IMG/VR virus record: IMGVR_UViG_2703719365_000004
Span: 1-27,354 of that record
From: a virus
Taxonomy: Duplodnaviria > Heunggongvirae > Uroviricota > Caudoviricetes
Length of the DNA stretch: 27,354 nucleotides
Reading direction: 5' to 3' (one strand)
Each line of letters opens with the position of its first letter. The first letter of the stretch is position 1. The translations under genes and the position numbers were made by a program. The notes beneath the pieces are model-generated. The model was not told the DNA's origin, ran no database searches, and saw only the letters and a list, made by a program, of their open reading frames with translations. Below are positions 7,397 to 7,711 of the stretch, piece by piece.

Positions 7397-7711
7397 TTGA
7401 GACAATCCTACCACCAGTTGGTGGTATCTCATGATTCACTGAATTGCAAATCTTCTGAATTGCTGGATGAGTTTAAATCTCACCGGCGCTATTTCTCCGT
7501 ATCAGTCTCCGTGCCTTATACCGATGTCAGGACGCATAAGCCCGTTCAGTTCTACCCGGGTAAACATCCGTGCGAGAAACCGGCGGATATGCTCAGGCAA
7601 ATAATCAATGCCAGTAGTCGACCTGGTGATCTGGTTGCTGATTTCTTTATGGGATTCGGTTCCACAATAAAAGCAGCAATGGCGCTGGGGCGTCGGGCGT
7701 TAGGTGTTTAA
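7397..7711 (+). pseudogene. 5'-truncated DNA methyltransferase remnant (C-terminal part of an N6/N4-type methylase)
   Basis: Translation contains HPCEKP (compare the HPTQKP motif) followed by GDLVADFFMGFGSTIKAAMALGRRALGV, the C-terminal AdoMet-binding/target-recognition segment of ParB-type and phage DNA methylases. There is no N-terminal catalytic (D/N)PPY region and the ORF begins at a TTG right at the AT-rich cassette boundary. Confidence 0.6.

Follow-up and report, generated by a model that had tools for sequence, protein, structure and literature searches.

A 3′ methylase gene remnant bordering a two-gene cargo block in the late region of an SfV-like prophage

The window, that is, the whole stretch of DNA that was analyzed (27,354 nucleotides), covers an SfV-like lambdoid prophage from its replication genes to its tail genes. 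Positions 4000–9901 were 99.98% identical to the genome of Escherichia coli O157:H7 FRIK2533, and positions 7200–7850 were 100% identical to phage vB_EcoM-689R6, whose 43.5-kb GenBank record (ON470584) contains the entire closest prophage. The late operon starts at the Q antiterminator gene, which is followed by the presumed pR′ region and a tR′-like terminator with a stem at 6114–6137 and a T-run extending through 6140; an equivalent terminator is annotated in SfV. An Rfam scan of positions 5800–8000 gave nothing near any gathering score, and the weak matches at 6042–6142 corresponded to the terminator hairpin. Immediately downstream of the T-run lies a block of two genes (the cargo), and next to it is the open reading frame that is the subject of this report. 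This frame is followed by a terminator-like hairpin that is unchanged from the ancestral arrangement and by the gene for the lambda-family holin S, after which come the endolysin and Rz genes and then Bor/Iss on the opposite strand. The coordinates of these features are given in Table 1.

Table 1. Coordinates of the late-region features and of the nin-region methylase gene within the window
Feature	Position	Strand	Basis
Dam-like N6-adenine methyltransferase gene, nin region, intact, 217 aa	2054–2707	+	Pfam PF05869 (Dam), E = 4.2e-45, profile positions 3–167 of 169
Q antiterminator gene, late-operon start	5256–6008	+	Pfam PF03589 (Antiterm), E = 8e-53; ~95–96% nucleotide identity to SfV Q
Divergent left flank: Q 3′ end, presumed pR′ region, tR′-like terminator	5972–6140	+	Mismatch density, allele search
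Cargo block (moron), two genes, 39% GC	6141–7401	+	Absent from SfV, mEp460 and 720R4
Putative sigma-70-like promoter	6163–6192	+	Consensus scan, 10 of 12 matches
Gene for a predicted GNAT-fold protein, 180 aa	6220–6762	+	AlphaFold2, Foldseek
61-codon gene (orf61)	6954–7139	+	PHROG family match
Predicted strong terminator	7194–7222	+	Consensus scan
AT-rich non-coding tail, 179 bp	7223–7401	+	Composition
Open reading frame under study, TTG to TAA, 104 aa	7397–7711	+	ORF list; PGAP pseudogene in O157:H7
Methylase remnant, true extent, codons ~228–350 of an M.EcoGII-family gene	7402–7771	+	blastn, tblastn
Junction-proximal substitution cluster, 8 changes, common to all truncated alleles	7403–7452	+	Allele alignment
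Secondary nonsense mutation, GAA (Glu331) to TAA	7709–7711	+	Comparison with other alleles
Terminator-like hairpin, 3′ of the methylase stop and 5′ of the holin gene	7779–7800	+	Stem 7779–7795 then TTTTTATTT; SfV annotates equivalent
Holin S gene, lambda family, first gene of an intact lysis cassette, 3′ of the remnant	7848–8183	+	Pfam PF05106, E = 5.9e-27; FRIK2533 PGAP coordinates

A sequence-only reading of this DNA had proposed that the frame at 7397–7711 encodes the C-terminal part of an N6/N4-type DNA methylase with no catalytic (D/N)PPY region upstream. Both points were borne out. The product of the frame matched Pfam PF01555 (N6_N4_Mtase; E = 7e-18), and only positions 156–209 of the 221-position profile were covered. 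By blastn, positions 7402–8400 corresponded to SfV locus positions 2993–3991 with 96.6% nucleotide identity, starting at codon 228 of SfV orf48 and continuing into the holin gene. When an intact methylase protein was compared with the whole window by tblastn, residues 227–350 alone were recovered. The remnant consists of the last 123 codons of a 350-codon gene for a beta-class N6-adenine methyltransferase, and a relocated 5′ part was absent by tblastn both from the rest of the window and from the 43.5-kb closest phage record. The frame upstream is shut by a TAG at 7394–7396 plus further stops.

The remnant contains the motifs HPCEKP and DFFMGFGST. Catalytic motif IV, (D/N/S)PP(Y/F), which is DPPY at residues 34–37 of SfV orf48, is missing from it. 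The AdoMet-binding motif I (FxGxG) is kept as FMGFG, with Phe at the x position that is occupied by Ser in all five intact relatives. M.EcoGII is composed of a Rossmann domain (residues 1–134 and 260–349) and a four-helix recognition domain (residues 160–237; PMC11551740). On this map, what remains is some 10 residues of the recognition domain, followed by the linker and by the second Rossmann segment, which carries FxGxG and is shortened by a stop at codon 331; neither the Rossmann fold nor the target-recognition domain is complete. Having lost DPPY, the first Rossmann segment and all but the end of the recognition domain, the stub cannot methylate DNA.

The GC content rises from 0.33–0.35 (7100–7399) to 0.49–0.52 (7400–7699), the step falling exactly at the start of the open reading frame, as expected from the proposal that the frame opens where the AT-rich block ends. 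The frame itself exists as had been described, but its two ends do not coincide with those of the methylase remnant. Unambiguous homology to intact methylases begins only at about 7402–7410, which indicates that the TTG at 7397 is fortuitous and corresponds to no ancestral codon. At the other end, the codon at 7709 is GAA in SfV, mEp460, mEp460_4F5 (4F5) and vB_EcoM-720R4 (720R4), as well as in strains 1409 and AR216.2b, whose alleles are truncated. The TAA is a mutated Glu codon, and thus the original gene ended at 7771 rather than at 7711, the ancestral frame running on for 20 further codons (LESERFNQTVKEVSELVGK) to the native stop at 7769–7771.

Intact 1,053-bp genes for a 350-aa methylase are found at this position, flanked by Q and the holin gene, in SfV (orf48), mEp460 (gp53), 4F5 and 720R4, in agreement with the suggestion that a methylase gene once sat there. 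All four are full length and have a small orf47-like gene upstream in place of the cargo. SfV, 4F5 and 720R4 also share the downstream terminator and S gene of the window, whereas mEp460 differs from 7773 on. Over the retained part, the nearest intact alleles were 91.7–97.7% identical in nucleotide sequence. An SfV-type methylase allele was found with at least 80% coverage in 1,143 of 5,426 complete E. coli genomes, and the methylase allele of phage 1720a-02 matched 2,027 of these genomes, single genomes carrying as many as 7 copies; O104:H4 genomes were not among the best matches listed for the 1720a-02 allele.

SfV orf48 was 80% identical over its full length to M.EcoGII (over 349 aa) and 81% identical to the 1720a-02 methylase, and the remnant was 70% identical to M.EcoGII at the amino acid level from residue 227 (227–330); the M.EcoGII sequence used in these comparisons was machine-read from Supplementary Table S1 of PMC11551740 and contains a few reading errors. 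The 1720a-02 enzyme was called very similar to M.EcoGII by Murray et al. (2017; PMC5778455), who found M.EcoGII to be non-specific, silent in the lysogen and harmful if constitutively expressed, and who proposed that it is turned on at prophage induction. Searches of the literature by peptide string and by name found no direct link between SfV orf48 and M.EcoGII. The SfV-type parent shares the motif order DPPY, recognition domain, FxGxG with M.EcoGII and M.EcoGI of E. coli O104:H4 prophages, and judged by sequence the parent gene belongs to the M.EcoGI/M.EcoGII clade by descent. Context-independent adenine methylation by the SfV-type sub-clade would follow by analogy, from the 80% identity to M.EcoGII. 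The copy in the window is prophage-borne, like M.EcoGII and M.EcoGI. Unlike M.EcoGII, however, it lacks residues 1–226, and with them the DPPY motif, the first Rossmann segment and nearly the entire recognition domain, carries a premature stop as well as changes at invariant residues, and is not an enzyme.

This phage has no intact methylase gene other than the Dam-like one at 2054–2707, a point on which the sequence-only reading was right; besides the stub, the Dam-like enzyme is the sole methylase annotated in ON470584. The host genomes retain intact paralogues of the lost methylase in other prophages. The cargo-bearing O157:H7 genomes contain further copies of the family at 2–4 places per record, including at least one full-length copy with 98.9–99.0% identity.

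By blastn, positions 5000–6140 corresponded to SfV locus positions 708–1847 (95.4% identity), and there was no match from that point to 7402. The same two breakpoints, 6140/6141 and about 7402, were obtained against SfV, mEp460, 720R4 and 4F5, so that alignment with intact methylase genes of related phages placed the methylase breakpoint at about 7402. Between these points 1,261 bp have taken the place of 1,145 bp present in SfV, the lost segment consisting of orf47, a conserved small gene (phrog_331), and 683 bp from the 5′ end of the methylase gene. The segment 6141–7401 showed no similarity to SfV, mEp460 or 720R4 by blastn, and its GC content is 39% compared with about 50% in the flanks. 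Full-length cargo with at least 99% identity was present in 98 of the 5,426 complete E. coli genomes; O157:H7 strains account for many of these, and the junction is the same in all 98. As had been suggested, the cargo is a secondary acquisition: it represents a derived minority state, 98 genomes versus 1,143 with the intact allele, and its base composition deviates from that of its surroundings.

A moron is an independent promoter–gene–terminator unit inserted between conserved lambdoid genes, a concept attributed to Hendrix and Juhala. The cargo has several moron-like traits, including a promoter-like site, two genes, a terminator, a deviant GC content, and presence or absence among otherwise collinear phages. 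It also sits right after tR′, as do the different extra genes of mEp460 and 4F5. Unlike a simple moron insertion between genes, however, the cargo replaced 1,145 bp and destroyed a neighboring gene.

Neither cargo protein matched anything in Pfam, NCBIfam or PADLOC, and both matched PHROG families of unknown function (phrog_11949 and phrog_11292). Only 28 relatives of the 180-aa protein were found (90% clustering), all of them from Enterobacterales. The AlphaFold2 model of this protein had a mean pLDDT of 86, and its top Foldseek matches were Naa50 and RimI (E ~1e-5, TM ~0.5); the predicted structure matches a GNAT acetyltransferase fold. In each of the six related loci that were examined, the 61-codon gene follows the GNAT-fold gene. 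One metagenomic prophage has the pair right behind Q and before the holin region, with no methylase sequence nearby, and in a Photorhabdus cinerea prophage the gene order is NinG, Q, an orf47-like gene, an intact 360-aa methylase gene, the GNAT gene, orf61 and the holin gene. Since the pair occurs without the methylase elsewhere and alongside it in Photorhabdus, it is an independent moron of the Q-to-holin interval. Coexistence of the pair with a methylase in Photorhabdus also suggests that truncation of the gene in our window was collateral and involved no functional swap; we therefore consider it unlikely that the cargo is a functional substitute for the methylase. The pair of genes for the GNAT-fold and 61-aa proteins is less well understood than the stub.

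The stub has the hallmarks of a decaying sequence. Compared with the nearest intact allele (4F5/720R4), the window differs by 3 synonymous and 10 non-synonymous changes, giving a pN/pS of about 1.0 by Nei–Gojobori pairwise counts over 122 shared codons, a figure that comes from only 13 differences and involves no tree-based model. The corresponding values among intact alleles were 0.08–0.12, and the probability of a 3:10 split under an omega in that range is 2e-5 to 4e-4. The changes include W271R in the invariant PYTDVW, S313F in the invariant FMGSGS, R243C and L255H, and five intact relatives with 62% to 98% identity to SfV orf48 show no variation at any of these four positions. Inspection of the sequence before the TTG at 7397 and the GTG at 7421 identified no ATG and no Shine–Dalgarno-like sequence. 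The length of the stub is polymorphic, 104 codons with the TAA and 124 without it. An exact 62-mer bearing the TAA was found in 82 records, corresponding to 82 of the 98 cargo-bearing genomes, and the disabling codon is absent in strains 1409 and AR216.2b.

By its sequence features, the stub is an ordinary prophage pseudogene, and this status was already known from the NCBI PGAP annotation. The identical sequence in FRIK2533 is RefSeq pseudogene A8V31_RS01570 (locus positions 3757–4071, equivalent to 7397–7711 of the window), and the PGAP label in FRIK2533, 1409 and AR216.2b is ‘DNA methyltransferase; incomplete; missing N-terminus’. That annotation gives neither the parent family, nor the breakpoint, nor the history of the locus. 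In ON470584, the stub is listed as an ordinary CDS, ‘DNA adenine methylase’. Transcription of the stub by Q-modified polymerase is expected, and a fragment starting at the TTG or the GTG could in principle arise.

Direct repeats or recombination scars had been anticipated at about 6150 and about 7390. This expectation was not upheld, as a search for direct or inverted repeats at 6141 and 7401 gave only short chance matches. The absence of repeats at the junctions led us to reject transposition and site-specific insertion. Insertion of a transposon or IS element is further discounted in that the block contains no terminal inverted repeats, no target-site duplication and no transposase gene. Because neither repeats nor transposon ends are present, the junction would have arisen by illegitimate recombination.

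Both flanks of the cargo were found to be divergent close to the junctions. On the left, the density of mismatches to SfV, mEp460 and 720R4 increased from about 2% (5700–5970) to about 12% (5972–6056) and then to about 24% (6057–6140). At a threshold of at least 95% identity, this left-flank allele was present in exactly 98 records of the 5,426 E. coli genomes, the next best match being 86.5%, and the allele was not found without the cargo in that search. On the right, eight of the 12 differences over 369 nucleotides fall within the first 50 (binomial P = 3e-5), at 7406, 7408, 7409, 7418, 7425, 7430, 7445 and 7452, whereas the next 320 nucleotides contain only four more differences plus the nonsense codon. 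The right segment near the junction was likewise present with at least 95% identity in 98 records, while 1,011 others were all at or below 90%. None of the 5,426 E. coli genomes contained an intact allele carrying the 7403–7452 variants. Y231 and H238, two residues that are new in the stub, match the Photorhabdus homolog. The 7403–7452 cluster is probably a leftover of the more divergent methylase allele of a donor.

The allele of strain AR216.2b is of the truncated type up to 7452 and of the mEp460 type from 7533 at the latest, and in this strain the place of the lambda-type holin gene behind the stub is taken by an mEp460-like EssD/RrrD lysis cassette. This mosaic structure indicates that recombination within the stub does occur. 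Since both flanks carry variants that are exclusive to the 98 cargo-bearing genomes, we favor, with some reserve, a history in which the module spanning about 5972–7452 was built in a more divergent lambdoid phage and reached SfV-like phages as a finished unit, through homologous recombination in the flanks. The proposal that the cargo arrived by an insertion or replacement that cut off the 5′ part of the methylase gene therefore stands as regards replacement (1,261 bp for 1,145 bp), but the event probably did not take place in this phage. The donor phage for such an import was not found among the 5,426 E. coli genomes.

A different history, which concerns only the place of truncation and not the status of the stub as a pseudogene, is that the cargo was inserted in this lineage, deleting orf47 along with the front of the methylase gene, and that the clustered substitutions are local mutations that arose while the illegitimate recombination took place or later. 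Several observations are compatible with such an event. No donor allele with these variants was seen among the intact genes, of the eight changes on the right side five are C-to-T on the + strand, the direction that deamination of resected single-stranded DNA would produce, and one junction is common to all 98 genomes. However, the left flank is divergent by 12–24% over about 170 bp, including the terminator loop and the Q 3′ end, which is hard to attribute to break damage, and the left-flank allele, the cargo and the divergent right segment each occur in exactly 98 records. Furthermore, the match of Y231 and H238 to the Photorhabdus homolog is what a natural divergent allele would give, and AR216.2b demonstrates recombination inside the stub. 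Truncation within this lineage is accordingly a tentative alternative that we regard as doubtful. The clustered substitutions at both junctions may also be a mutational scar of the recombination itself, with no donor allele behind them.

From these findings, the segment is very probably a non-functional 3′ remnant of a late-operon methylase gene of the M.EcoGI/M.EcoGII family, left behind when the cargo replaced the rest of the gene. In SfV, mEp460, 720R4 and the Photorhabdus prophage the order is Q, pR′/tR′, a small orf47-like gene, the 350-aa methylase gene, a terminator and the holin gene. Because the ancestral methylase gene lay just downstream of Q and tR′, it would have been read only by Q-modified polymerase, and the enzyme was presumably made only late in lytic growth, via Q antitermination. 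By extension from the published work on M.EcoGII, its broad adenine methylation would have shielded progeny DNA from restriction. A 1.26-kb AT-rich two-gene moron would then have replaced orf47 and the first 228 methylase codons, with its left end directly after the T-run of tR′ and its right end inside the coding sequence. The most likely birthplace of this module is another lambdoid phage, from which homologous recombination would have carried it into the SfV-like prophage. Thereafter the stub would have drifted neutrally, gaining the nonsense codon in a lineage that includes O157:H7, and it still provides, in a purely passive way, a patch of homology by which the cargo has become joined to a different lysis cassette. 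The outcome would be loss of the promiscuous methylase and retention of the Dam-like enzyme alone.

We also considered whether selection might maintain the stub. One possibility is a role in cis, in which the last 370 bp together with the terminator at 7779–7800 would be needed for holin expression, or in which the stub would serve as a homology anchor for movement of the cargo. Neither the terminator nor the spacer to S differs from its counterpart in the intact phages, and the stub is demonstrably a crossover site in AR216.2b. On the other hand, other prophages have the cargo pair directly before the holin region without any methylase sequence, and the sequence of mEp460-type phages differs from 7773 onward, suggesting that no specific upstream sequence is required. 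As use of the stub for crossovers requires no selection, we judge a selected role in cis to be improbable. Finally, we give hardly any credence to a role for the stub as a small protein that pairs with co-resident M.EcoGII-family enzymes in a dominant-negative manner, or that binds SAM, as the open 104-codon frame with its FxGxG motif, the further family copies in O157:H7 genomes and the view that beta-class methyltransferases act as dimers (a requirement discussed in PMC7544214) are outweighed by a pN/pS near 1 with replacement of invariant residues, the variable length, the lack of an ATG and a ribosome-binding site, the poor prospect that half a Rossmann fold would fold alone, and a recombinant allele in which most of the sequence has been exchanged. 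The most specific version, that a late-translated SAM-binding half-domain pairs with the M.EcoGII-family methylases of other prophages and modulates methylation of co-induced phage DNA in the O157:H7 cell, would be just as far-fetched.

Although the overall importance of these findings is modest, they name the M.EcoGII family as the parent of a widespread pseudogene, which is carried by 98 complete E. coli genomes, including many of O157:H7 strains. The promiscuous adenine methylases of this family are widely used for chromatin mapping. The label ‘DNA adenine methylase’ in ON470584 should be corrected. With the M.EcoGII-family methylase lost and only the Dam-like PF05869 enzyme left, virion DNA of this phage should lack broad m6A protection. 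An SfV-like prophage without such blanket protection should produce virions that are more vulnerable to restriction than SfV or 720R4 virions. The locus also illustrates clearly the way in which morons spread, in that the cargo travels with short divergent stubs of its old neighbors, and these stubs then act as crossover sites that join the cargo to different lysis cassettes.

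The two AT-rich cargo genes that occupy the place of the small gene and of the 5′ part of the methylase form a conserved two-gene pair, in which the first gene is always followed by the gene for the 61-aa protein. The 180-aa product of the first gene had no match in Pfam, NCBIfam or PADLOC searches, and a confident structure model predicted a GNAT fold for it. An invariant segment of this protein, WMEKRNDAHxDL, lies at the usual position of the GNAT acetyl-CoA loop. We found the pair only in late regions of Enterobacterales prophages (E. coli, Cronobacter, Erwinia, Proteus, Photorhabdus and Limnobaculum), and it could conceivably act in defence or anti-defence or in a toxin-antitoxin-like manner.

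Locations of the methylase remnants, the cargo pair, the small upstream gene and other accessory genes
Feature	Location	Details
Stub annotated as an ordinary CDS, 'DNA adenine methylase'	L003 (vB_EcoM-689R6):4222-4512 = ON470584.1 21863-22153	96 aa from GTG
Recombinant stub, E. coli AR216.2b	L006:3757-4414	equivalent of window 7397-7850
GNAT-fold gene	window 6220-6762	180 aa; fold from structure model
61-aa protein gene	window 6954-7139	follows GNAT-fold gene
Small gene upstream of methylase	L001:1966-2160 (SfV orf47); L002:1956-2159; L007:31734-31964; L016:3287-3442	phrog_331; ~64-76 aa
PerC-like activator domain protein	window 1560-2054	PF06069
LexA DNA-binding-domain protein	window 2704-3030	adjoins RusA
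Bor/Iss lipoprotein	window 9153-9494, minus strand	after lysis genes

The deletion that took the 5′ portion of the methylase gene from the window also removed the phrog_331 gene, which lies immediately 5′ of M.EcoGII-family methylases in phages of E. coli as well as in a Photorhabdus prophage. Because the pairing of both genes is conserved, the phrog_331 product could act together with the methylase or regulate it; to our knowledge, no such partner or regulator has been described.

In the closest phage record, ON470584.1, the prophage looks like an SfV-like myovirus in the e14 attachment site, since it adjoins icd and carries an e14-type excisionase and integrase, while its opposite end has genes for a DNA invertase and for McrA-like 5-methylcytosine-specific restriction (features in L014:28-1517 and 34111-38654). 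In addition to presenting the stub as a coding sequence, this GenBank record (vB_EcoM-689R6) names the endolysin 'terminase small subunit'; both annotation errors could spread to other records.

Five of the eight junction-proximal substitutions (window 7406-7452) were C-to-T changes on the plus strand; with so few sites, either deamination of resected DNA or merely the sequence of the donor allele could account for them. The stub in E. coli AR216.2b had the same sequence as the window allele through 7452, was of the mEp460 type from 7533 at the latest, and had another lysis cassette, EssD/RrrD, after it. This recombinant stub is direct evidence that the pseudogene is a crossover site at which late-region modules are shuffled.
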